The position numbers and the translations under genes are program-made. From an uncultured Anaerolineales bacterium (GTDB lineage: Bacteria > Chloroflexota > Anaerolineae > B4-G1), in NCBI GenBank assembly GCA_964530325.1, contig CAZHAX010000003.1, positions 11,409 through 75,408 of the forward strand: a DNA stretch of 64,000 nt. The letters run 5' to 3'. Below, piece after piece: positions 37,874 to 51,488 of the stretch. Below the pieces are notes generated by a model. That model had not been told where the DNA came from. It ran no database searches and worked only from the letters and a program-made list of their open reading frames with translations. The number at the start of each line of letters is the position of its first letter. Position 1 is the first letter of the stretch.

Positions 37874-37896
37874 CCGTCTGCTACCCACTTGCACAG

Positions 37897-37921
37897 CCAG
37901 GGCAGCTGTGAGCCGCCCTGG
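37897..37921. terminator. Hairpin between the convergent Mth938-like and FW-paralog genes
   Basis: CCAGGGC-N11-GCCCTGG. Confidence 0.35.
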
Positions 37922-37964
37922 CGATTGGCCGGACAGTGCAAGCCAGATCAAGTCCGCAGCCTGG

Positions 37965-39329
37965 CTAGAACGTCACGCAGGTGACGTAGCAGGCGACGTT
38001 CTTCTCCGTCGACTCCAGGTTGAATGCCCAGACCGACCAGGTGTTGGCCGTGGTGATCTGGCTGCTGTAGAACCGGGTGACGCCCGCCTGGCCGACGAAC
38101 CCACCGCCGGTCGCCAGTCCGGTCGGGCAGGTGCAGGTGGCGTTGCCGGAGCCGTGTGGGCCCACGGAGCCCCACACCTTCTCCTCGTACGTCGTGCCGC
38201 TGGTGCCGGAAAGGCAGATCGCGTGTGCTGTCAGCGCGTTTACCGAGCTCTCCGTGTTGTTCGCGTACACCCGCCAGCCGTTCCCGGAGGCCCGCGAGCT
38301 GGCGTAGACGTGCTGGCTGCCGTCGTAGTCGATGCCCCATCCGCCGCCGGTGATGATGCTTCCGGCAGGACACCAGGCCACAGCGCTGGCCCAGCCGCCG
38401 GGCTGCACCTCCACGGTTCGGGCCACCGTCGTGACCGAGCCGGAGACGTTCGTGAGGCAGGCTGCCCGGACGATCAGGACCTGATCTGTGGTCGAGTGAT
38501 TCATGGCCGAGACCTTCCAGCCATCTGCGGTCTTCAAGTTGGCGTGGACCACCATGGACCAGTGGGTCAGGTAGCCGCCGCCGACCACCAGGCTGCCCTC
38601 GGGGCAGACGGCAGTTATCGATCCTGAGTAGCCAGGCGCGATCTGAATCCGCCTCTCATCCCAGACGATGCTGGGGAAGAGAGCGGGCACAACCGTCATC
38701 ACTGGCGGCGCCAGCGTCATCAGAGGTAGGGTGGTAGCCGCAGGCGTGGCTGTTGCGGCCGCCGGCGTAGCCGGCGGTGGCTCCGGGCTGGGCACCACGA
38801 TCTGCACCCAGAACGTGGACCCAAACATCTGCGCCTCGGCCGACCTCATCCGCCAGTCGCCCCGATGCGTCCCGTACGTCGTCGGCGCAGCAAGATCAGC
38901 GGTGACGTCCACCGTGGCCCCCGCCGCCGTCTCCGGCACCGGCACGGACGCCGGCCCGCCCATCTGCTCCCCAGACACGAAGACGAGCTCGAAGCCAGGA
39001 CCCCAGTCGCACGTACCCGTGTTCTGGATTCGCCAACCCTTCACGAAAGCCGCCCCGGGCGCCATCTCCGTGTCGTCCGGTATGGTGATGTCGGCCACGT
39101 AGGACGCGTTCAGCGTGCAGTCCCCCGCCTCCACGTCCTCCTCGGCAGTGGGGGTTGCCGCAGCTTCACCCGCCTCTTCGGCAGTCCCGTCCGGCGTGCG
39201 TGTGGCGTTCTCATCCGCCCCGGCGCCGCCTAAGAGCTCCTGGAGAGGCGCGCAAGCCGGCGCTCCCAGGAGCACGACTGCGAGGACGAGCACTACCACC
39301 ACCCGCGGCCCTCTCCTTCCACTCAACAT
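37965..39329 (-). CDS. Secreted NBR1-type FW domain protein with three C-terminal Cys-bracketed GGG/NGW repeats (paralog A; lacks the Ig-like domain)
   Basis: Signal peptide ending 'LLGAPAC'; FW domain 'CTLNASYVADITIPDDTEMAPGAAFVKGWRIQNTGTCDWGPGFELVFVSG...FGSTFWVQIVV'; a PT linker; repeats 'CPEGSLVVGGGY', 'CPAGSIITGGGW...NGWRVYANN', 'CPTGLATGGGF'. Confidence 0.75.
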   Translation of the reverse strand: MLSGRRGPRVVVVLVLAVVLLGAPACAPLQELLGGAGADENATRTPDGTAEEAGEAAATPTAEEDVEAGDCTLNASYVADITIPDDTEMAPGAAFVKGWRIQNTGTCDWGPGFELVFVSGEQMGGPASVPVPETAAGATVDVTADLAAPTTYGTHRGDWRMRSAEAQMFGSTFWVQIVVPSPEPPPATPAAATATPAATTLPLMTLAPPVMTVVPALFPSIVWDERRIQIAPGYSGSITAVCPEGSLVVGGGYLTHWSMVVHANLKTADGWKVSAMNHSTTDQVLIVRAACLTNVSGSVTTVARTVEVQPGGWASAVAWCPAGSIITGGGWGIDYDGSQHVYASSRASGNGWRVYANNTESSVNALTAHAICLSGTSGTTYEEKVWGSVGPHGSGNATCTCPTGLATGGGFVGQAGVTRFYSSQITTANTWSVWAFNLESTEKNVACYVTCVTF

Positions 39330-39368
39330 CCCGCACCTCCATCAGTCGGTGTAGCTCTCATCCCCATG

Positions 39369-39394
39369 AACGGAGCGTCCGCCCACTTTGTTAC
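39369..39394 (-). promoter_or_regulatory. ECF-sigma-type promoter GTAAC-N17-CGTT upstream of paralog A
   Basis: Conserved in sequence and spacing with the paralog C and D promoters. It lies about 40 nt upstream of the ATG, and a GGAGGTG RBS follows. Confidence 0.5.
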
Positions 39395-39496
39395 GCCAGG
39401 TCGCCTGACATCCTGGGGACAGCACGGCAACAAGCGGGCTCCGGGTTGGCTGAGCCGCCCCGGGTCCCAAGCACTCCGCGCCGGCCCGCTCAGCTC

Positions 39497-41091
39497 CTAC
39501 GGGAACGACAGGCAGATGGCGTAGGCGTTGGGCGGCTTGTCAGTTCCACTGCTGTTCTGGGCAAACACGTTCCACTCGTTGCCCGTGAACAGCTTGGTAG
39601 AGGTGTTGTAGACGTATGCTAGGGTCCCTCCCGCAAACCCGCCCCCGACGGCCAGGCTGCCCTCCGGGCATGTGGCGATCACGCCCCCGTCTCGTGGCCG
39701 CCGACGCTGCCACCGTTGCCGACCTCCGTGGTGCTACCGCTCGTGCCGGACAGACAAGCCGCGTAGACGGCAAACGTCTTGTCCTCGCCGCCCCCGTTCC
39801 TGGCGCGCGCCCCCCAGCCGTTGCCTGACACACGGCTGCCGTAGACCTGCAGGCTGCCATCGTGGTCGGACGCCCATCCGCCGCCGGTGACGACGCTGCC
39901 GGGCGGGCAGGTGACCTCCGGGGTCCCGTGCCATCCCGCCTCCACCGTCACCGAGTAGTGCGCCTCGGTCACGGATCCGCCTGTGTTCGACAGGCAGACA
40001 GCATAGACGTTCAGCAACTTGCTCACGCCAGCGTTGTTCTTGGCCCAGGCTTGCCAGCCATCGCCGTGCTGGGAGTGGCTGTAGACCAGTACGTCGGGAT
40101 GGGCGGCATACCCACCGCTAACGGGCAGGCTGCTGCCGGGGCATTCCACCGTCGCTTGGCCGATGTCGCCCGAGCCGATCGAGATCTGGGAGTAGATCTG
40201 TTCCACCTGCACCGGGAGGAAGGGCGGTATCATAGGCGTGGTCTGCGGCGGCAGCATGGTCATGATCGGCACGTCCAACGTCGGCGTAGCCTCCGGCGCG
40301 GCCGTCGCCGGGCTGGGCACCACGATCTGCACCCAGAACGTGCTGCCGAAAGGCCGCCCCTCGTCGGATCGCATCTGCCAGTCACCGCGGTGCGTGCCAT
40401 ACGCCGTCGGTGCTTGCAGATCGATCGCTAGATCCACCGTCCCGCCGGCGACCGTCTCGGGCAGCGGGATCGAACAGACGCTGCCCATCTGGACCCCCAG
40501 CACGAAGACGAGCTCGAAGCCCGGGCCCCAGTCACACGTGCCGCTGTTCTGGATCCTCCAACTCTTGGTGAACGATGCCCCAGGCGCCATCTCCGTGTCG
40601 TCCGGGATCATGATGTCGGCCACGAACGAGGCGTTCAGAGTGCAGCCTTCCGCCTCCACATCCTCCACCGGCGTCGGGCTGGGCTGGGCCACGCCCTTCC
40701 TCACCCTCAGCGTGATCGTCGCCTATTCCGATGCCTGCCCCTCCGCATCGTAGGCAATCACCGAAACCCGCACCTCGCCCTCTTCCTCGGGCACCCACGA
40801 CTGAACCAGGCGAAAGGTCGTCAGATTCTCTTCCGGAGGCTCCGCCTCCCGCACCACCTCCCCATCGATCAACAACTCCACCCGCGCGATCCCCACGTCC
40901 GACGTCGATACCGACGCGATCTCCACCGTTCGTCCCACTCCCACACGGGCCCCGGTGGCCGGCCTGCTGATCTCCACGCTCGGCCCGCCGTTGGCCAGCA
41001 TGTCCTCCAACGGGGCACAGGCCAACACAGTCAGGAGGAGAAGGAGCACCAGCGATGAGACAGCTCGCACCCCGCTCTTGTGGCGCAGCAT
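39497..41091 (-). pseudogene. Disrupted paralog B of the Big_7-FW-repeat family (in-frame TAG plus C-terminal frameshift)
   Basis: Three ORF pieces (40723..41091, 39679..40704, 39497..39682) are colinear with paralogs C and D. TAG at 40723-40725 replaces a residue in 'ASE-A-ATIT'; there is a frame change near 39680; the upstream -35 GTAAC is lost. Confidence 0.7.
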
Positions 41092-41347
41092 AGCACACCT
41101 CCTTCAGTCAATCGAATGAACGGCCTGTCGGCCCGCTTTCCCAGGGCCTCGCACCGCACGGTCGCTGCTCGTGGGGCTCAAGCCGAGACGAGTGGGGAGT
41201 CCGGATTGTCGCCGTCGTCGGAGTGGAGATGGGCGCGCGGGTCTGGGGGTTGGAAGGTGTGGAACGAGGGGCAGTATCAGCACGAAGGTCGTCGATCACA
41301 CCATCATCAGCTTACGCCGGTATGGACCGTATCGCAAACGAGAACCC

Positions 41348-41377
41348 AGCCGGGGCGGCCCCCGGGCCGCCCCGGCT
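41348..41377 (-). terminator. Perfect GC hairpin downstream of paralog C
   Basis: AGCCGGGGCGGCCC / GGGCCGCCCCGGCT, 14-bp stem. Confidence 0.5.
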
Positions 41378-41424
41378 CCTCACCTCTCCACAGTCCTCTC
41401 GCCCATCATTCCCACCGAGCGCTT

Positions 41425-43053
41425 CTACGGGAACGACAGGCAGACCGCATAGGCGTTGAGACCCTTGCTGGATCCAGAGGAATTCCTGGCATATACGATC
41501 CATTGGTTATCCGAACCCGGCTTGGGCGACGTGTTGTAGACACGCAGGTCGGGCCCTCCCGCGAAACCGCCACCGGCCGCCAGGCCGTCCCCGCTGCAGG
41601 TGGCGACCACATAACCCGTGCCACTGCCGGCAATCGAGCCGCCGCTGCCCTCCTGGGTGGTCGTGCCGGTCGTGCCGGAGAGACAGAGGGCATAGGCCTT
41701 GACATACTTGGTGGACCCTGTGTTGTTCTTCGCATACACCTGCCAGCCGTTGCTGGACTTGGAGCTGTTGTAGACGTGCAGGCTCCCGTCCGCGTACGAG
41801 GCCCATCCTCCGCCGGTGACGACGCTGCCCGCCGGGCAGGCTGCGATCGGGTGGCCGACGCCTCCCGCTGCCACCGCCACCTGCTCGGATACCTGGGTCA
41901 CGCTGCCCGCCGTATTCGAGAGGCACACGGCGTACACGCTCAGAGTCTTGCTCGCGCCGGCGTTGTTCTGGCCGTATACCCGCCAGCCGTTGCCCACCTT
42001 GAAGTGAGTGTACACCAGGACGTCAGGATGGACGGCGTACCCACCACTGACGACCACACTGCCCGAGGGACAGCTCGCGGTCTCCCAGCCGATATCGCCG
42101 GGGTCGATGGAGACCTGCTCTAGCACAGTCGCGACGGACGGTTGGAACAAAGGAAGCGCAGTGATGATGATCGGACCCAGCGTGAAGATCGGCATGAACC
42201 AGGTTGGTGTCGGCCAGGGCGTGTCGGTCGGCAGCGGCGTCGGCGTCACCGTCGGCGTCGCCGTCGGCGGCGCAGGGACGATGATCTGCACTGAGAGAAC
42301 GGCACCGAAGATCTGCCCCTGGTCCGAGCGCAGCCTCCACTCGGCGGAGTGCGTGCCGTAGGTCATCGGCGCCTCCAGCTGCACGCTCAAGTCGACAGTA
42401 TCGCCCGCTGCCGTGGGCGGCACAGGAACGGACGCCGGCCCGCCCATCTGATCGCCGCTGGCGAACACCAGGGTGAACCCGGCACCCCAGTCACAGGTTC
42501 CGCTGTTCTGCACTCGCCAGCCCTTGATGAACGGTGCGCCCGGAGCCACCTCCGTGTCCGCCGGTATCGAGACGTCGGTCACGAAAGCCGCGTTCACCGT
42601 GCAGGCGGCGGGGGCCTCCGTCGGGGTTGGGGTCGGCGTGGCCGCCTCAGCGGCACCGGCTCCGACATTCAGGATCACGGTCGCCTCATCCGACGCCCGC
42701 CCCTCGCTGTCGTAGGCCACCACCGAGATCTCCACTTCACCCTCCGCGTCCGGGAGCCAGGTCTGCACCAGGCGGAACGTGCTCGGATTCCCGGAGGGTG
42801 GTGTGCTCTCCTGCACCACATCGCCGTCCACGAGCAGCTCCACACGTGCTATGCCGGCGTCGGCGGTTGAAGTAGAGGCGATCTCCACCGCTTCCCCGAT
42901 CTCGGCTGTCGCCCCGCTGGTCGGGCTCGTTATCTCTACGCTCGGCCCCAGGTCGACGACCAGCCCCTCCAGGGGCGAGCAGGCGAGTGCCGTGACGAGC
43001 AGCACCAGCACCAGTAGCGAGAAAGCTCTTGTCCTACTCTTGCTGCGCAACAT
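41425..43053 (-). CDS. Secreted Big_7 Ig-like + NBR1-type FW domain protein with three C-terminal GGG/NGW repeats (paralog C)
   Basis: Start at the Met preceded by an AGGAGGTG RBS. Signal peptide 'LLVLVLLVTALAC'; Big_7-like 'VEITSPTSGA...VELLVDGDVV...VVAYDSEG'; FW domain; a PT linker; three repeats ending '...AYAVCLSFP'. Confidence 0.8.
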   Translation of the reverse strand: MLRSKSRTRAFSLLVLVLLVTALACSPLEGLVVDLGPSVEITSPTSGATAEIGEAVEIASTSTADAGIARVELLVDGDVVQESTPPSGNPSTFRLVQTWLPDAEGEVEISVVAYDSEGRASDEATVILNVGAGAAEAATPTPTPTEAPAACTVNAAFVTDVSIPADTEVAPGAPFIKGWRVQNSGTCDWGAGFTLVFASGDQMGGPASVPVPPTAAGDTVDLSVQLEAPMTYGTHSAEWRLRSDQGQIFGAVLSVQIIVPAPPTATPTVTPTPLPTDTPWPTPTWFMPIFTLGPIIITALPLFQPSVATVLEQVSIDPGDIGWETASCPSGSVVVSGGYAVHPDVLVYTHFKVGNGWRVYGQNNAGASKTLSVYAVCLSNTAGSVTQVSEQVAVAAGGVGHPIAACPAGSVVTGGGWASYADGSLHVYNSSKSSNGWQVYAKNNTGSTKYVKAYALCLSGTTGTTTQEGSGGSIAGSGTGYVVATCSGDGLAAGGGFAGGPDLRVYNTSPKPGSDNQWIVYARNSSGSSKGLNAYAVCLSFP

Positions 43054-43094
43054 ACCACACCTCCTGTTGTGACCAAGGTTCACTCATGCTCATG

Positions 43095-43120
43095 AACGGA
43101 ACCTCGGTCCCGGTTGTTAC
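43095..43120 (-). promoter_or_regulatory. ECF-sigma-type promoter GTAAC-N17-CGTT upstream of paralog C
   Basis: TGTAAC...CGTT with the same spacing as paralogs A and D. Confidence 0.5.
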
Positions 43121-43236
43121 ATTGCCCGGCGGAGCCGCCCGGCATCGACGCTGCCGCCGTTATGTCCACACGGTATCCTACGGTTCCAGTATACGACCTG
43201 CGCGCCTCGCTGGCAAGCGAGACCTGGCCGTGGACG

Positions 43237-43274
43237 CAGTGAGCCGGGGTGGCTAGTGCCGCCCCGGCTCACTG
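43237..43274 (-). terminator. Perfect 13-bp-stem hairpin downstream of paralog D
   Basis: CAGTGAGCCGGGG-N12-CCCCGGCTCACTG. Confidence 0.5.
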
Positions 43275-43308
43275 CTCTTGGGCAGGCTTGTGCGTCCCTA
43301 CCTGACGA

Positions 43309-44898
43309 TCAGAAGGTCAGGCAGTCCGCGTAGCAGTAGAAGTTCCTGGAAGAGGTGTCCGTATTCCGACCCCAGTTGCTCCATTGGCCGGAGACGGACA
43401 GGTCCGGGGACGTGATGTAGAGCTTGGCGTACTGGAACGGCCCGGCGAAGCCCCCGCTCACGTTCAGCCCGCTGGAGCAGGAGCACTCGACCTCACCCAC
43501 ACTGCCGGCTCCCAGGCTGATCGAGTTCGTCACCTCGGAAACGGAGCCGGTCGTGCCCTCCAGACAGATCGCCCGCGCTACCACGCCCGAGTTGCCGCTG
43601 CCGGTGTTGAAGGCATAGACCTCCCAGCCGTTGCCGAACTTGGAGCTGTTGTACACGTGCATGTCGCCGGTGGGCAAGACCGCCCAGCCGCCGCCCGTGA
43701 CGACGCTCCCGGCGGGGCACTCGGCCACCGCCTTGCCCCAGTTGCCCGGCGTCACTGAGACGCTGGAGCTCGTGACCATCGATGTAGTACCTGAGACATT
43801 CCTCAGGCAGACCGCGTGCACGGTCATCGCCAGATCGGACCCGCCGTGATTCCAGCCCGCGCCGCGCCAGCCATCGCCGGACTTGTAGTGGCTGTAGACC
43901 TCGACGTTCCAGTGCACGTCGTAGCCGCCGCCGACGACGAGCCCTCCGCCGGGGCATGCGGCGGTGGTCGCCGCCCAGGTGCCGGCCGGCACCGTCACCG
44001 TCGCGCTCACGTGCTGAGTGTACGGCAGGAAGACCATGAATGTGGGGGCGATCATTGTTATGAGCGGCATAGACCAGGTCGGGGTCGGCGTCGGCGTATC
44101 AGCCGGCGTCGGCGTCACCGTAGGCGGCGCGGGAACCACTATCTGGACCCAGAACGTGGAGCCGAACATCTGCGCCTCATCAGACCGGGCTCGCCAGTTG
44201 CCCCGATGCGTGCCGTAGGTCGTAGGAGCTTCCAGCTCAACGCTGACGTCCACGGTGTTTCCGGCGGGGGTTGGTGAAATCGCGACCGAAGCCGGCCCGC
44301 CCATCTGATCCCCGCTGACGAAGACCAGCTCGAAGCCGGGACCCCAATCGCAGGTCCCGCTGTTCTGTATCCTCCATCCCTTCACGAAGGAGGCTCCGGG
44401 CGCAATCTCGGTGTCGTCCGGGATCGTGATATCGGCCACGTAAGAGGCATTCAGCGTGCAGCCCCCGATCTCGACATCCTCCGCCGGCGTCGGCGTCACG
44501 CCGGCCGCGGCTTCGCCGACGAAGATCGTGATCGTTGCCGCCTCGGACGCCCGCCCTTCGACGTCGTAGGCCACCACAGACACCGTCACCTCGCCTTCCG
44601 CCAAGGGGACCCACGCCTGCAGCAGGCGGAAGGTCGGCGGGTTGCCCGCCGGCGGTTCGTCCCGGCGGACCACAGCGCCGTCGACCAGGAGCTCGACCCG
44701 GGCCAGGCCGGCATCTGCGCTGGAGGTGGAAGCGATCTCCAGCGTTTCCCCAACCTGCACCGTGAGCCCACTCGCGGGCCCGGTGATCTCTGTGCTGACC
44801 GTATCCTCTCCCAGAAGCGGCCCGCAGGCCAGAGACGCCAGTAGAACAACCAGCGACGCGCCCCTCGACGCCCGCAACCTTCTCGTCTCACTCGGCAT
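43309..44898 (-). CDS. Secreted Big_7 Ig-like + NBR1-type FW domain protein with three C-terminal GGG/NGW repeats (paralog D)
   Basis: Signal peptide 'LVVLLASLAC'; Big_7-like domain; an FW domain nearly identical to paralog A; a PT linker; repeats 'CPGGGLVVGGGY', 'CPAGSVVTGGGW...NGWEVYAFN', 'CSCSSGLNVSGGF'; 'GAGEVGRY' RBS GAGGAGG. Confidence 0.8.
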   Translation of the reverse strand: MPSETRRLRASRGASLVVLLASLACGPLLGEDTVSTEITGPASGLTVQVGETLEIASTSSADAGLARVELLVDGAVVRRDEPPAGNPPTFRLLQAWVPLAEGEVTVSVVAYDVEGRASEAATITIFVGEAAAGVTPTPAEDVEIGGCTLNASYVADITIPDDTEIAPGASFVKGWRIQNSGTCDWGPGFELVFVSGDQMGGPASVAISPTPAGNTVDVSVELEAPTTYGTHRGNWRARSDEAQMFGSTFWVQIVVPAPPTVTPTPADTPTPTPTWSMPLITMIAPTFMVFLPYTQHVSATVTVPAGTWAATTAACPGGGLVVGGGYDVHWNVEVYSHYKSGDGWRGAGWNHGGSDLAMTVHAVCLRNVSGTTSMVTSSSVSVTPGNWGKAVAECPAGSVVTGGGWAVLPTGDMHVYNSSKFGNGWEVYAFNTGSGNSGVVARAICLEGTTGSVSEVTNSISLGAGSVGEVECSCSSGLNVSGGFAGPFQYAKLYITSPDLSVSGQWSNWGRNTDTSSRNFYCYADCLTF

Positions 44899-44940
44899 TG
44901 TTAGCCTCCTCTATCGATGGGGTTCTCCACCGTCACTCAC

Positions 44941-44976
44941 AACGATTCGCTCGCCGGTCTTGTTACTCGGCCCGGC
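44941..44976 (-). promoter_or_regulatory. ECF-sigma-type promoter GTAAC-N17-CGTT upstream of paralog D
   Basis: GAGTAACAAG...AATCGTT, about 43 nt upstream of the ATG. Confidence 0.5.
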
Positions 44977-45025: not shown

Positions 45026-45553
45026 CTAGGTGCCGGGCGACTGCACGCCAACGATCAAGCTACTCCACTCGAGTGCTCTCCACGCCCCGCTCTCATCCCT
45101 CCGCACGCTGACCGGCCTGGCACTCGCCGCCCCTGAGCATGAGGCGAAGACCTTGTACGTGCCAGAGCCCGCGTCCCCGCTGTACTTGTTCGCCGAGAAC
45201 TCCAGCTCGTACGGCAGATCGGGCAGCTCATAGCCATTCTCCGGAGCGGTGCACTTGAAATACGACCTGGGTATGTGCCCTTTGCCCACGATCTGCGATA
45301 GCGCCAGGCGCAGATCGGAGCTGCGTAGCTGCAGCCCATCGTATCCCTGTGCGCCCTCCTCCAGGCGGCTGGAGTCGACGGCCGCGGCCATACATTGCCG
45401 GCCCAGCTCCTCATTCTCCGCCAGCAGCAGCAGGGCAACAACCATGGCCGCCGCGCCGCCCTGCGGCTCTCCGGCAATCCCGTCCCGCATCTTGACGAAT
45501 TCCTCGATCGAACCGGGCATACTGCCGATCCGCACAGGTTTCAGCGTCGTCAT
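45026..45553 (-). CDS. Hypothetical protein
   Basis: 175-aa ORF with an AGGAGGTG RBS. No recognisable motif. Confidence 0.45.
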   Translation of the reverse strand: MTTLKPVRIGSMPGSIEEFVKMRDGIAGEPQGGAAAMVVALLLLAENEELGRQCMAAAVDSSRLEEGAQGYDGLQLRSSDLRLALSQIVGKGHIPRSYFKCTAPENGYELPDLPYELEFSANKYSGDAGSGTYKVFASCSGAASARPVSVRRDESGAWRALEWSSLIVGVQSPGT

Positions 45554-45647: not shown

Positions 45648-46403
45648 CTAGAAGTCGTATTCCGTGAGGTCCTGGGCTAGCTCCACCGGGCCACCGAACG
45701 CCTCCCCGGCCTCGGTCAGCCAGCGGTCGTACTGCTCTTCGTCCGGCTGATAGTGGATCAGCACCAGCCTACCAACCCCAGCTCGGCGTGCGAGCTCGCC
45801 CGCCTGCGCCGCGCTCGTGTGGCCTGCGGTGCTACTCGCCGCCTCGTGGATTAGGATGTCGGATCCCTCAGCCAGAGCAACGACGGCATCGCACGGTGCC
45901 GTGTCGCTGGAATAGGCTATCGAGCCGCCGCTGCGCTTGTTCTCGAAGCGTAGCCCGACTGTTGGCACGAGGTGCTCCACCGGGCCGGAGGTGATTCGCA
46001 GCCCCTCCGTCTCCACAGCCAGCGCACCTATGTCTTCAGTCAGAGTCTTGTACTCAATCGGAAAGAGCCCCGGCCAGTCCTGCCAGCGGAAGAGGTCCAT
46101 CATGGAATTGAACCTCTCGATTGCGTCAGCAAGGCCGTAGACCTCGAGGGGCTTCTTCCTACCCAGGAGCCAGGCATCCATCAGCAGAATTGGGGCGCCG
46201 CAGACGTGGTCCGGGTGGAAGTGCGTGATGAAGAGCCCTCGCAGATTGCCGAGAGCCAATCCCGCACCGTTGAACCTTACTATCGGATTGTCGGCGCAGT
46301 CGATGAGGAATAGGTCTTGACCCTCCTCCACTGCCAGGTAGGTGTTGGCATGGGCCTCGTCCGGCACCGCCGCCGCGCTTCCCAGAACAATCAGCCTTGT
46401 CAC
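45648..46403 (-). CDS. MBL-fold metallo-hydrolase
   Basis: 'HFHPDH' (HxHxDH) zinc-binding motif. Confidence 0.75.
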   Translation of the reverse strand: MTRLIVLGSAAAVPDEAHANTYLAVEEGQDLFLIDCADNPIVRFNGAGLALGNLRGLFITHFHPDHVCGAPILLMDAWLLGRKKPLEVYGLADAIERFNSMMDLFRWQDWPGLFPIEYKTLTEDIGALAVETEGLRITSGPVEHLVPTVGLRFENKRSGGSIAYSSDTAPCDAVVALAEGSDILIHEAASSTAGHTSAAQAGELARRAGVGRLVLIHYQPDEEQYDRWLTEAGEAFGGPVELAQDLTEYDF

Positions 46404-46410
46404 GCCCGCC

Positions 46411-47916
46411 CTACCCCCCGAAGGCCCGAATCACCAGGGCCGGTGTCAGATGCGCCTCGACTGCAGCGGCGGCCGCCAGCATAGGCAGCACCAGGAACAC
46501 GAAAACCTTCAAGAAGTCGGCCAGCGCCCGCAGCCACGCCTCGCCGACAGCCATGCCCCGAGGAGGTGACATGAAGACAGCTCCCAAGCGGACTGCCATG
46601 GCGGTCGATAGGACCACGGCCGGTATCTCCAGGGCGCCGTGCGGTAGCACACCGGCGGCGAAGAACAGCCACGGGTCGTACCCCATGTTGGCGGACTGGG
46701 CCACAAGGAAGGCCACGACGGCGAGAGGAGCCATCGTCAGCGCTATGGCCAGAGAGCCGAACGAGAACACTGCCAACAGAGCCGCCCCCACCAACACCCG
46801 CAGGTTGTGAGAGAGAATGCCTCCGGTGGTTAACGACAGGACTCCCAGGACACGACTGTCCGAGAAGGAGTCGGCGGAGACGACCTCGTCTCCCAGGAGC
46901 TCGGCCGGCAGGGGGTAGTCGGCGGCGAAGCTCAAGCCAACTAGCACAGCCAGAAGGATTGCCACTACCACGGTGGCCACGGCCAGCCGGGATTCGCGAA
47001 GGACCGCTGGCAGGTGGCGCCGGTAGAGACCGCCCAAGGCCCCCATCCAACGCAGGGCAGCGGGCAGCCGATCCGGGTCTCTGCCGAAGAACCAGGGCTC
47101 CCACTGTAGGTGACGCCAGAACGTGCGCCAGATGTAGCCCAGGTTCAGCTCATCGATCTCGCGACCCAACAGCTCCTCGCGATTGAAGATGTAGATGCCC
47201 ATGCGGACAAGTATCACGTCCGCGACGACAAGGAAGGCCACGATCCACCACAGCGCGTCGTAGTTGCCCCAGAACATCACCAGGGCCTCGCCCTGCGCCA
47301 GGAGCGCCATGGGGATGATGATGAAGCTGGCCAGCAGGTTAGCGGCGCGCACGCTGGTCGTCTGGCTGGACACCACCACCGCACCGCTGACCATAACCAC
47401 GCACTCGGCCGTGGTCAGGACGATGATGAGAACGAACAGCTCCAGCGGGGGCGACCAACCCTCGAAGTAGTATAGGCCAGTCAGGTAGACCCCCACGCCG
47501 AGGTAGGCGGCCAGCAGCGGCGGCACCATCGCTCCCACTGTCTTGCCCACGTAGAGCTCGGCGTCGGACAGAATCGTAGCCAGAAGAGGTTCGAGGCTCT
47601 TTCGCTCCCGCTCGCCGGCGAACGTCTCCAGTGCGATGACCAGCGAGAAGGAGATGGGGAAGAAGCCGACGATCATGAGCAGGAATGGCAGCATCCTCTC
47701 GCTGATGATCGGGGCTCCTCCGTAGCTGGCTACCCATTCAATGGCGCTGTTGGCCACGAACGTCATTATCAACGGGAAGAGTAGAGTGAGCAGCACGATC
47801 GGGATGGCGATGCGCCAATCACGAAGTGAGTCGCGCACCTCGCGGCCGACGAGAGCAAGCACCAGACGCAGCGACTCTGCGATCCCCCCTTCTCGTTGCA
47901 GGGCCTTGGTCGTCAT
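46411..47916 (-). CDS. ABC-2 family permease fused to a SpoIIM/DUF95-like membrane domain
   Basis: N-terminal six-TM ABC-2 permease. The C-terminal half carries 'VLPHGALEIPA', typical of stage II sporulation protein M family domains. Confidence 0.6.
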   Translation of the reverse strand: MTTKALQREGGIAESLRLVLALVGREVRDSLRDWRIAIPIVLLTLLFPLIMTFVANSAIEWVASYGGAPIISERMLPFLLMIVGFFPISFSLVIALETFAGERERKSLEPLLATILSDAELYVGKTVGAMVPPLLAAYLGVGVYLTGLYYFEGWSPPLELFVLIIVLTTAECVVMVSGAVVVSSQTTSVRAANLLASFIIIPMALLAQGEALVMFWGNYDALWWIVAFLVVADVILVRMGIYIFNREELLGREIDELNLGYIWRTFWRHLQWEPWFFGRDPDRLPAALRWMGALGGLYRRHLPAVLRESRLAVATVVVAILLAVLVGLSFAADYPLPAELLGDEVVSADSFSDSRVLGVLSLTTGGILSHNLRVLVGAALLAVFSFGSLAIALTMAPLAVVAFLVAQSANMGYDPWLFFAAGVLPHGALEIPAVVLSTAMAVRLGAVFMSPPRGMAVGEAWLRALADFLKVFVFLVLPMLAAAAAVEAHLTPALVIRAFGG

Positions 47917-47919
47917 CGG

Positions 47920-48831
47920 TTAGGCCTCCACCACACGCAGAAAGACATCTTCCAGGCTGCGTTCTACCTCGCTCAGGGTGACGACCCCTACTCCTTCTCT
48001 CGAGAGCGTCTGAAGCACAGCTGGGTTCGTGTGCGAGGGATTGGGGGTCGAATAAAGTAGCCAATCCGCACCCCGGCCCTCGATCGTCACCAGGTCGGAT
48101 ACCAGATCCACCGCACCGTCTACCGGGCCGGCGAGTCTCAGCTCCATCAGGGGTGGCCCTAGCAGCTGGTCCTTCAGCTCGCCAGAGGTGCCCAGAGCGA
48201 TGATCTCGCCCCTCCGTATGATGGCGATCCGATCCGCGATCGCCTCAGCCTCCGCCAGGTTGTGAGTGCAGATGACCGTCGCCCGGCTCTGGCTGCGCAG
48301 GCTGACGATGGCATCGCGCACGAGCTTGGCGCTGTGGGGATCCATTGCCGAGGTCGGCTCGTCGAGCAGGAGGACCGGCGGATCGTGCAGCATAGCGCGC
48401 ACCAGGGCGATCTTCTGTCTCGCGCCTTTGGAGTACGTGGACAGCCGCCGGTCATAGAGATCAGACATGCCGAAGTAGTCGACGAGCTCCCTGGCCCGCC
48501 GCACTCTCTCGTCGGGATCGATCTGCATCATGCGGCCGAAGAAGTCCAGGTACTCGGCGCCTCGCATGCGCAGATAGAGGCCGGGGTGCTCGGTGAGGAG
48601 CCCGATCCTTCGCCTCACCTCCCGAGGACTCTTGGTCACCCAGTGGCCAGCTACGAGAGCGTCACCGGCCGTGGGGCGGAGGATAGCCCCGAGCATACGA
48701 ACGGTCGTCGTCTTGCCCGCACCGTTCGGACCTAGCAACGCCAGGATCTCGCCCGCGCGTACCGAAAACGTCACCCGGTTGACCGCGGTGAACTCGCCAA
48801 ACCGCTTCGTCAGTCCCTGCAGTTCAATCAT
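47920..48831 (-). CDS. ABC transporter ATP-binding protein
   Basis: Walker A 'GPNGAGKTT', signature 'YSKGARQK', Walker B 'LLLDEPTSAMD', plus a C-terminal extension of about 70 aa. Confidence 0.85.
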   Translation of the reverse strand: MIELQGLTKRFGEFTAVNRVTFSVRAGEILALLGPNGAGKTTTVRMLGAILRPTAGDALVAGHWVTKSPREVRRRIGLLTEHPGLYLRMRGAEYLDFFGRMMQIDPDERVRRARELVDYFGMSDLYDRRLSTYSKGARQKIALVRAMLHDPPVLLLDEPTSAMDPHSAKLVRDAIVSLRSQSRATVICTHNLAEAEAIADRIAIIRRGEIIALGTSGELKDQLLGPPLMELRLAGPVDGAVDLVSDLVTIEGRGADWLLYSTPNPSHTNPAVLQTLSREGVGVVTLSEVERSLEDVFLRVVEA

Positions 48832-51404: not shown

Positions 51405-51414
51405 AGCCGCGTCC

Positions 51415-51488
51415 GGGGCGTAGCGCAGTCAGGTAGCGCGCAGCAATCGGGATGCTGAGGCCCGGGGTTCAAGTCCCCGCGCCCCGAC
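51415..51488 (+). tRNA. tRNA-Pro (anticodon CGG)
   Basis: Manual cloverleaf: acceptor CGGGGCG/CGCCCCG, D-arm GCGC-AGTCAGGTA-GCGC, anticodon stem CAGCA/TGCTG with loop AUCGGGA, and T-arm CGGGG-TTCAAGT-CCCCG. No CCA is encoded. Confidence 0.85.

Follow-up and report, generated by a model that had tools for sequence, protein, structure and literature searches.

The double-layered β-prism is an unusual protein fold that is known only from the APCβ domain of apicomplexan perforin-like proteins and the V-domain of PCSK9, which are also the examples solved so far (PMC6294395). Resistin provides the single module. The three modules of the PCSK9 domain (M1-M3) are structural homologues of the resistin homotrimer, and each of them holds three disulfides that join Cys1-6, 2-5 and 3-4 (PMC9113161). 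The FW domain of NBR1 and ILRUN also occurs in the bacteria, specifically in Chloroflexi, Actinobacteria and γ-Proteobacteria; most genomes are without it and the bacterial domains are uncharacterised (PMC3357945, PMC9582228). Here, we analyze an array of four paralogous genes, A to D, of an uncultured Anaerolineales bacterium (contig CAZHAX010000003.1), situated in a stretch of 64,000 nucleotides that we call the window, and we suggest that this array encodes clade-specific, lipid-anchored and non-catalytic surface proteins of the Chloroflexota, in which a predicted β-prism would bind ligands and an FW domain would contact a common partner. We give this reading a probability of about 0.6.

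The open reading frames and their coordinates bear out a preliminary description of this DNA, which had claimed four minus-strand paralogs, one of them disrupted. The four genes have a common plan, lie on the same strand and span positions 37965-44898, with A, C and D intact. The intact genes and their parts are as follows:

43309-44898, minus strand: gene D, intact open reading frame, 529 amino acids
within 43309-44898, minus strand: lipobox Cys25 of D, after the signal peptide
44509-44802, minus strand: Big_7 domain of D (tblastn domain coordinates)
44131-44460, minus strand: FW domain of D (tblastn domain coordinates)
44023-44130, minus strand: Pro/Thr linker of D
43312-44022, minus strand: predicted three-repeat β-prism of D (tblastn domain coordinates)
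41425-43053, minus strand: gene C, intact open reading frame, 542 amino acids
42661-42942, minus strand: Big_7 domain of C (tblastn domain coordinates)
42280-42603, minus strand: FW domain of C (tblastn domain coordinates)
about 41428-42129, minus strand: predicted β-prism of C
37965-39329, minus strand: gene A, intact open reading frame, 454 amino acids
38790-39119, minus strand: FW domain of A (tblastn domain coordinates)
about 37968-38672, minus strand: predicted β-prism of A

Gene A is without Big_7, and an acidic low-complexity stretch occupies the place of that domain. A GGAGG sequence stands 7-9 nucleotides before every ATG from A to D, and the start codons of the preliminary description, including that at 43053 for C, are therefore supported. 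A scan of all four products against NCBIfam gave nothing useful.

What this analysis chiefly adds is that the C-terminal repeat region is predicted to be a β-prism of the PCSK9 V-domain/resistin type with a large prokaryotic family, and we found no paper describing either. The Pro/Thr linker and the three Cys-bracketed repeats that had been noted earlier are real, with a repeat length of ~78 residues, and the module, previously left unassigned at about 75 residues, can be given an identity on the strength of AlphaFold (AF2) models and Foldseek searches: the repeats are predicted to be resistin-like modules, three of which form a double-layered β-prism. The full-length model of D (70-sequence alignment) has a mean predicted local distance difference test score (pLDDT) of 88 and comprises four well-defined β-domains, between which residues 132-145 and 265-286 form disordered linkers. 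When residues 287-529 were modelled alone (24-sequence alignment), the pLDDT was 94.9, the predicted template modelling score (pTM) was 0.91 and the model had 3 x 6 strands; because it is confident and consists of three six-stranded units, the three repeats are predicted to make up one compact body, with the modules arranged in the model around a pseudo-threefold axis. In a Foldseek search of the PDB the top 27 matches are all PCSK9 chains (best E 2.5e-8; template modelling (TM) scores 0.62/0.67), followed by APCβ of P. vivax and nothing else. Each repeat has one invariant pair of cysteines (C315/C364, C394/C445 and C474/C526); repeat 3 of both A and D contains an additional pair, and B and C have a common 'CLSFP' ending. 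The spread of the fold was judged from PDB, BFVD and hidden Markov model (HMM) searches. A viral structure library held only weak matches to the prism (TM <=0.41), and no match came from a tblastn search of 50,697 records of phages. The Pro-rich hydrophobic stretch before the prism ('SMPLITMIAPTFMVFLPY' in D) was considered as a transmembrane segment and rejected, as it contains several prolines and is unconserved in the homologues; the residues at its end are packed against the prism in the model.

In the N-terminal half the earlier assignments, FW in all four products and Big_7 in B, C and D, are upheld by Pfam scores above the cut-offs. PF16158 (N_BRCA1_IG) matches A, B, C and D with E-values of 7.8e-27, 1e-24, 2.1e-24 and 2.8e-26 (94.4, 87.6, 86.6 and 92.6 bits, cut-off 28, model positions 1-108 covered), and PF17957 (Big_7) matches B, C and D with 34.3, 33.3 and 27.3 bits (cut-off 24.1) and is not found in A. 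Among PDB sequences the FW segment finds ILRUN (6vhi, 9e-18), NBR1 (4ole, 1.5e-14) and an Nbr1 fusion (7vqo, 2.6e-5). An alignment of 70 full-length homologues shows three FW tryptophans (W175, W185 and W235) and a pair of cysteines inside the domain (C147 and C183) to be invariant, whereas a fourth tryptophan (W250, in 'FWVQIVV') is kept in A, B and D and is a serine in C. The array domains are thus like those of NBR1 and ILRUN in their scores (87-94 bits vs a cut-off of 28) and their three invariant tryptophans; they differ in their presumed extracytoplasmic location, in the invariant and family-specific cysteine pair, which may form a disulfide, and in the missing fourth tryptophan of C. 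Their position in the protein is central, and the bacterial FW domains described previously are mostly C-terminal (PMC3357945). FW may be a general targeting or anchoring module of the envelope proteins of Chloroflexota. Other fusion partners of the Big_7-FW half are PD40/TolB-type β-propellers, M23 peptidase, CARDB and FN3 (P0067, P0118, P0068, P0083).

At least 90% of the 70 homologues keep the cysteine that closes the hydrophobic h-region of the signal peptide (consensus LACGP), and a loose lipobox regular expression fits 54 of the 70. The PROSITE PS51257-type lipobox pattern, applied by eye, appears to fit B (VLAC), C (ALAC) and D (SLAC) and does not fit A (APAC). The possible lipoprotein cysteine proposed earlier (as LAC[GSA]PL) stands as a conserved residue at the end of the h-region. 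Both this cysteine and the FW cysteine pair would fit lipid anchoring and an extracytoplasmic location.

The copies are old. Overall DNA identity between the paralogs is 57-64%, and the best 90-nucleotide window, which falls in the FW region, reaches about 82%. In protein the FW domains are 61-85% identical (85% between A and D), the Big_7 domains 61-64% and the prism repeats 32-58%. Synonymous divergence (dS, Nei-Gojobori) is about 0.6-1.8 in every domain and 1.10 for FW of A and D; the ratio of nonsynonymous to synonymous divergence (dN/dS), a crude value where dS is saturated, is 0.09-0.26 for FW (0.09 for the A-D pair) and 0.3-1.2 for the prism repeats. Moreover, the nearest relatives in other organisms, 68% identical for D and 77% for C, are both closer than the array paralogs. 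It is because dS is saturated in all domains and closer relatives exist elsewhere that we consider the array to be old. By these ratios the similarity of the A and D FW domains reflects strong purifying selection, and the prism head appears to be the fast-evolving part of the protein.

A quite different history had been proposed in the preliminary description, which called the FW domains of A and D nearly identical and saw recent duplication or gene conversion in them; the number of copies might, in addition, have been inflated by assembly artefacts. The tandem arrangement and common architecture of the genes, as well as the 85% identity of the two FW domains, are what such a history would leave, and independent short-read contigs do stop just past C: an 8725-nucleotide Logan contig of SRR8556428 (L001) has D and C and ends 19 nucleotides past the C stop, at the beginning of the C-B spacer; the paralog array appears to be the point at which this assembly breaks. 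Nonetheless, we consider this history highly improbable. Between the two domains identity is 85% for the protein and about 82% for the DNA, the copies have no near-identical DNA tracts, recent duplication is refuted by the synonymous divergence in every domain and by the closer relatives of D and C elsewhere, and the region of B recurs at 99.92% in another sequencing run.

That gene B is disrupted is clear from the following features:

39497-41091, minus strand: gene B, a pseudogene broken by an in-frame TAG and by a frameshift
40723-40725, minus strand: the in-frame TAG, at the end of Big_7
about 39682-39700, minus strand: the frameshift, just ahead of the third C-terminal repeat
40702-40980, minus strand: Big_7, still recognisable
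40315-40644, minus strand: FW, still recognisable
39500-40203, minus strand: prism segment, still recognisable

A Logan assembly of run SRR35817720 (L048) matches this region over 2508 nucleotides without gaps and carries both the stop and the frameshift. Assembly error was therefore rejected as the origin of the lesions, with the caveat that the window might share its sample with that run; because both lesions are repeated there, B is a real pseudogene unless the window stems from the same run. In JGI assemblies there is, furthermore, a 337-residue protein that has the length of the middle fragment of B and clusters with it at 90%. Programmed readthrough or frameshifting was judged unlikely, the -35 part of the motif upstream of B being degenerate as well. 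Gene B is a decaying copy.

The regions upstream of all four genes can be aligned, and they contain a promoter-like motif. The signals around the genes are these:

44941-44966, minus strand: GTAAC-N17-CGTT promoter-like motif upstream of D (motif scan, alignment)
43095-43120, minus strand: GTAAC-N17-CGTT promoter-like motif upstream of C (motif scan, alignment)
39369-39394, minus strand: GTAAC-N17-CGTT promoter-like motif upstream of A (motif scan, alignment)
41119-41144, minus strand: degenerate copy of the motif upstream of B, with TGGGAAA in place of GTAACAA in its -35 part and a leader 14 nucleotides shorter
43216-43188, minus strand: sigma-70-like site further upstream of the C motif, the single site from a sigma-70 scan
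43236-43275, minus strand: GC-rich hairpin downstream of D, 18-nucleotide arms, no U-tract
41348-41377, minus strand: perfect GC-rich hairpin downstream of C, 14-nucleotide arms, no U-tract
37896-37922, no strand assigned: GC-rich hairpin between the convergent A (minus) and DUF498 gene (plus), 12-nucleotide arms, no U-tract

The motif occurs three times in the window against an expectation of 0.06, and all three occurrences lie about 40 nucleotides before the ATG codons of A, C and D. It recurs at -61/-62 of related genes in three other loci (L004, L008 and L009), and more distant homologues have TACAAT-like upstream elements instead. Promoters of the extracytoplasmic function (ECF) type of sigma factor combine a -35 element containing AAC with a -10 element containing CGT, about 17 nucleotides apart, and by its sequence we infer that GTAAC-N17-CGTT resembles them. 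The earlier proposal that each copy has its own promoter and terminator can be retained in part: each intact copy has a motif, a Shine-Dalgarno sequence and a hairpin, but the hairpins have no U-tracts, there is one sigma-70 site, and B has weak hairpins only.

The array is not the oddity that had been suggested: for D, over 300 full-length relatives were found, and over 10,000 cluster representatives contain the repeat by itself. The named relatives of D are all from metagenome-assembled genomes (MAGs) of Anaerolineae, Anaerolineales or other Chloroflexota, and in the scans run here full-length relatives were seen only in that phylum. Their records read 'hypothetical protein', with one N-terminal-only relative recorded as 'NBR1-Ig-like domain-containing protein'. 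In nearly all of 45 Chloroflexota loci FW immediately precedes the prism, whether or not Big_7 is present. Tandem arrays are found repeatedly, with four copies in two loci (L018 and L022), three in another (L030) and two in a further one (L004), and most genomes have a single copy. The existence of a multigene family of extracytoplasmic, probably lipid-anchored and non-enzymatic proteins with Big_7 and FW, which the preliminary description had put forward, is supported.

The repeat module itself is far more widespread. A single-repeat profile run against 1.84 billion cluster representatives found 10,261 proteins at E<=1e-3 and 2,294 at E<=1e-10; the best 150 of the 10,261 matches have nearly all three stretches, and a few have six. 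Among 97 top matches FW is present in 48 and Big_7 in 20, and the other domains include Peptidase_M14, a glutaminase-like domain, PASTA, SdrD_B, cadherin, FG-GAP and CARDB. Enzymes that have the repeats at their C-terminus are M14 carboxypeptidases, one glutaminase-like enzyme and one S8 protease of the proteinase-K type. Loci from species-representative genomes include, in addition, a plain three-repeat lipoprotein (L043) and a small secreted Streptomyces protein with a single repeat (L046). In a Ktedonobacterales MAG (L042:8237-10765) a Ser/Thr kinase continues through a long spacer rich in Pro and Gly and a transmembrane segment into an extracellular prism of three repeats, which is in the place expected for a sensor domain. 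One repeat ends long collagen triple-helix proteins of an Actinomycetota MAG (L045:7820-10186) and a Chloroflexia MAG (L047:9134-10192), and one follows a segment judged by eye to be helical or coiled-coil in a Nitrososphaeraceae archaeon MAG (L044:1400-1978); by analogy, these stalk-borne single repeats resemble the stalk-plus-trimeric-head layout of resistin. Because three stretches dominate and the single modules sit on trimerising stalks, the functional unit would be the threefold prism, and its positions as a kinase ectodomain, at the tip of a collagen stalk and at the C-terminus of hydrolases are typical of a binding module. Two further three-repeat prisms (L039:8840-10723 and L040:2738-4747) stand behind a duplicated N-terminal module without a Pfam match, 'FPQTGHT(I/V)TQPFL.YWNTHGALAQQG(L/Y)PITDDYQEVN..DG..YRTQYFERARFE(F/Y)HPE'.

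One S8 protein has the domain architecture of PCSK9 itself. WP_052478940.1 (P0240), the 'S8 family peptidase' of Kibdelosporangium sp. MJ126-NF4, has an I9 prodomain at 49-108, a proteinase-K-type S8 domain at 145-382 and three repeats at 405-641, and its prodomain and catalytic region match PCSK9 73-436 with an E-value of 4.7e-44. Two further full-length relatives were found, the metagenomic P0291 (which has a precomputed PF27479 match) and P0292 of Phytohabitans houttuyneae. The architecture is rare and may be an independent fusion, a possibility that arises because the proteinase-K-type proteases among the matches listed have a wide variety of C-terminal domains.

The relationship between the bacterial repeats and the eukaryotic ones is seen in fold and, more faintly, in sequence. 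A one-repeat profile matches APCβ of TgPLP1 with an E-value of 9.6e-4, one stretch per APCβ repeat, on 'CPxxxVVxGG' (the CPxGxxVxGG motif), and its alignment with 'ASCPEGTAV' of resistin (P 0.0066) is a weak sequence echo. Among 24 repeat members Pfam finds its Resistin family in three (E 0.077) and a short nematode cysteine motif, the 'CC domain', in 21; PCSK9_C is not among the 25 Pfam families listed for these members. In the hhalign register against human PCSK9 450-692, a sequence verified against the PDB, the two bacterial cysteines fall on 'C-EEGWTLTGC' and 'AVAIC-C', and from the published disulfide pattern they would correspond to Cys2 and Cys5. We regard the prism domain as having the same fold and as probably homologous, and we do not file it in the PCSK9_C families because its modules do not have the three disulfides. 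It is 12% identical in sequence to the PCSK9 V-domain (M1-M3; 7anq, 2qtw), from which it also differs in that no His-rich module such as M2 was seen in the array prisms, and in being prokaryotic and joined in a lipoprotein to Big_7 and FW, whereas the V-domain is joined to a subtilase; Pfam finds no I9 prodomain or proteinase-K-type S8 domain in A-D. The resistin/RELMβ head (1rgx, 1rh7) is a homotrimer, while A-D have three covalently linked repeats and far fewer disulfides. The structural fit of APCβ (5ouo, 6d7a, 7pln) to the array prism is much poorer than that of PCSK9, and the APCβ domain is joined to a pore-forming MACPF domain and bears a membrane-insertion loop tipped by Trp. Precomputed matches to the recent Pfam family PF27479 ('YjdH'), marked faint, are found on C (that is, on the identical protein P0004) and on many homologues, and there is none on D or on many other members; the same family also matches the actinomycete S8-prism protein P0291. 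PF27479 is likely the database family of the repeat, and part of the present finding may already be catalogued; no paper mentioning PF27479/YjdH or bacterial homologues of PCSK9 or resistin turned up in our literature searches.

From the gene structure, the domain identities, the predicted fold, the distribution, the pattern of selection and the cis-motif, we propose the following picture of the array proteins. They would be built as beads on a string, with a lipobox cysteine as anchor, Big_7 as a spacer that was lost in A, then FW, a flexible Pro/Thr linker and the prism as a distal ligand-binding head, in which three resistin-like six-stranded modules would pack around the pseudo-threefold axis. 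FW would bind a common partner or envelope component, which is probable because this domain is kept nearly constant; since the prism diverges between paralogs, the copies probably differ in specificity. Each intact copy would be transcribed separately from its own promoter-like element, and the family would act at the cell surface as binding proteins or receptors, with adhesion, capture of substrates or sensing as its task. The SusE/SusF-type lipoproteins of the Bacteroidota also display non-catalytic β-sandwich binding domains at the surface on a lipid anchor and an Ig-like spacer. The likeness would be one of function, as the array is found in an unrelated phylum, has no polysaccharide-utilisation locus and uses other binding folds.

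A number of considerations count against this reading. The prism structure is a predicted model, the hhalign comparisons of the repeat profiles with PCSK9 are not significant (E 0.11 and 0.051), the similarity to resistin is not statistically significant by sequence, and each bacterial module has one conserved cysteine pair where a PCSK9 module has three disulfides. The selection pattern is drawn from crude ratios on saturated dS. The lipobox of A is poor and non-canonical, with Pro at -2. No neighbour is conserved across the 45 loci, tblastn with RpoE and SigW did not find an ECF sigma gene in the window, and the ECF-type interpretation of the motif is drawn from its likeness to the general AAC/CGT consensus. 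Lipidation, surface exposure, the binding function, the class of ligand and the sigma factor are all elements that we infer.

Some of these same points bear on what else the proteins might do. They could be sensors or co-receptors of an envelope-signalling system, for instance of an ECF sigma regulon, in which the prism senses a ligand and FW contacts a signalling partner in the membrane; the kinase of the Ktedonobacterales MAG with its extracellular prism, a prism protein that also carries PASTA, and the ECF-like motif conserved upstream of the intact copies all speak for such a role. Yet A-D contain no signalling domain, their neighbourhood is free of sigma/anti-sigma pairs, kinases and two-component genes, the loci have no conserved neighbour, and multi-copy arrays are unusual for dedicated sensors, so that we think this function unlikely. 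Quite unlikely, in our estimation, is a role by analogy with RELMβ/resistin and APCβ, in which the prism would bind the lipids of other cells and the array would be a diversified arsenal of membrane-targeting antagonistic or lytic factors.

That the proteins are structural components of the envelope without a specific ligand (part of a sheath, associated with an S-layer or located at cell-cell junctions of filamentous Anaerolineae) seems to us distinctly improbable. Their all-β, multi-domain and lipid-anchored build with Pro/Thr linkers would suit such a purpose, as would the confinement of the full-length relatives seen to Chloroflexota. But most genomes have a single copy, the head domain diverges fast, Pfam reveals no SLH or S-layer domains, and the same head decorates enzymes and kinases in other phyla, for which a binding module is the better fit.

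Beyond the preferred reading of the array as ligand-binding surface proteins, a more far-reaching proposal is possible, which we advance tentatively and hold to be more doubtful. The prism may be the prokaryotic homologue, and possibly the source, of the fold of resistin, the PCSK9 V-domain and APCβ; it would then belong to a very large and largely unstudied family of extracellular binding heads in prokaryotes, of which the FW-prism proteins of the Chloroflexota would be diversifying surface receptors under an alternative sigma factor. If this is true, such heads come in two forms, single modules that trimerise on a collagen or helical stalk and fused triplets. We found no paper giving a prokaryotic origin for the PCSK9 domain, and the proposal amounts to a testable hypothesis on the ancestry of resistin and this domain. 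The array proteins would also offer tractable bacterial models for ligand binding by the β-prism fold and a first defined context for the role of a bacterial FW domain, that of an extracytoplasmic lipoprotein in which it is paired with a prism head. For the Chloroflexota they would represent a conserved and sometimes expanded family of surface proteins with its own conserved promoter motif.

The surroundings of the array were compared by searching the neighbours in the window against 46 loci and by clustering the open reading frames of all loci all-against-all, which gave generic ABC ATPases and synteny inside one subclade only. None of the neighbours suggested earlier (an ECF sigma/anti-sigma pair, a sortase or an S-layer gene) was seen beside the array. 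The genes that are there look functionally unrelated: one flank has a DUF6935 protein, a protein of the metallo-β-lactamase fold and an ABC-2/SpoIIM transporter pair, and the opposite flank has DUF498, DUF3592 and an iron alcohol dehydrogenase. The DUF6935 protein (45026-45553, minus strand; E 1.5e-35) lies directly upstream of D, and a copy 55% identical to it occupies the same position in the closely related L004 and is absent from the other loci. The metallo-β-lactamase-fold protein (45648-46403, minus strand) matches Lactamase_B and Lactamase_B_2 only in a local Pfam scan, and its identical copy in L001 has a precomputed match to PF23023 (Anti-Pycsar_Apyc1). A fused ABC-2 permease/SpoIIM-like protein (46411-47916, minus strand) adjoins an ABC ATPase (47920-48831, minus strand), the two having no evident link to the array. 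The sole RNA gene detected in the window is a tRNA-Pro (CGG) at 51414-51488 on the plus strand.

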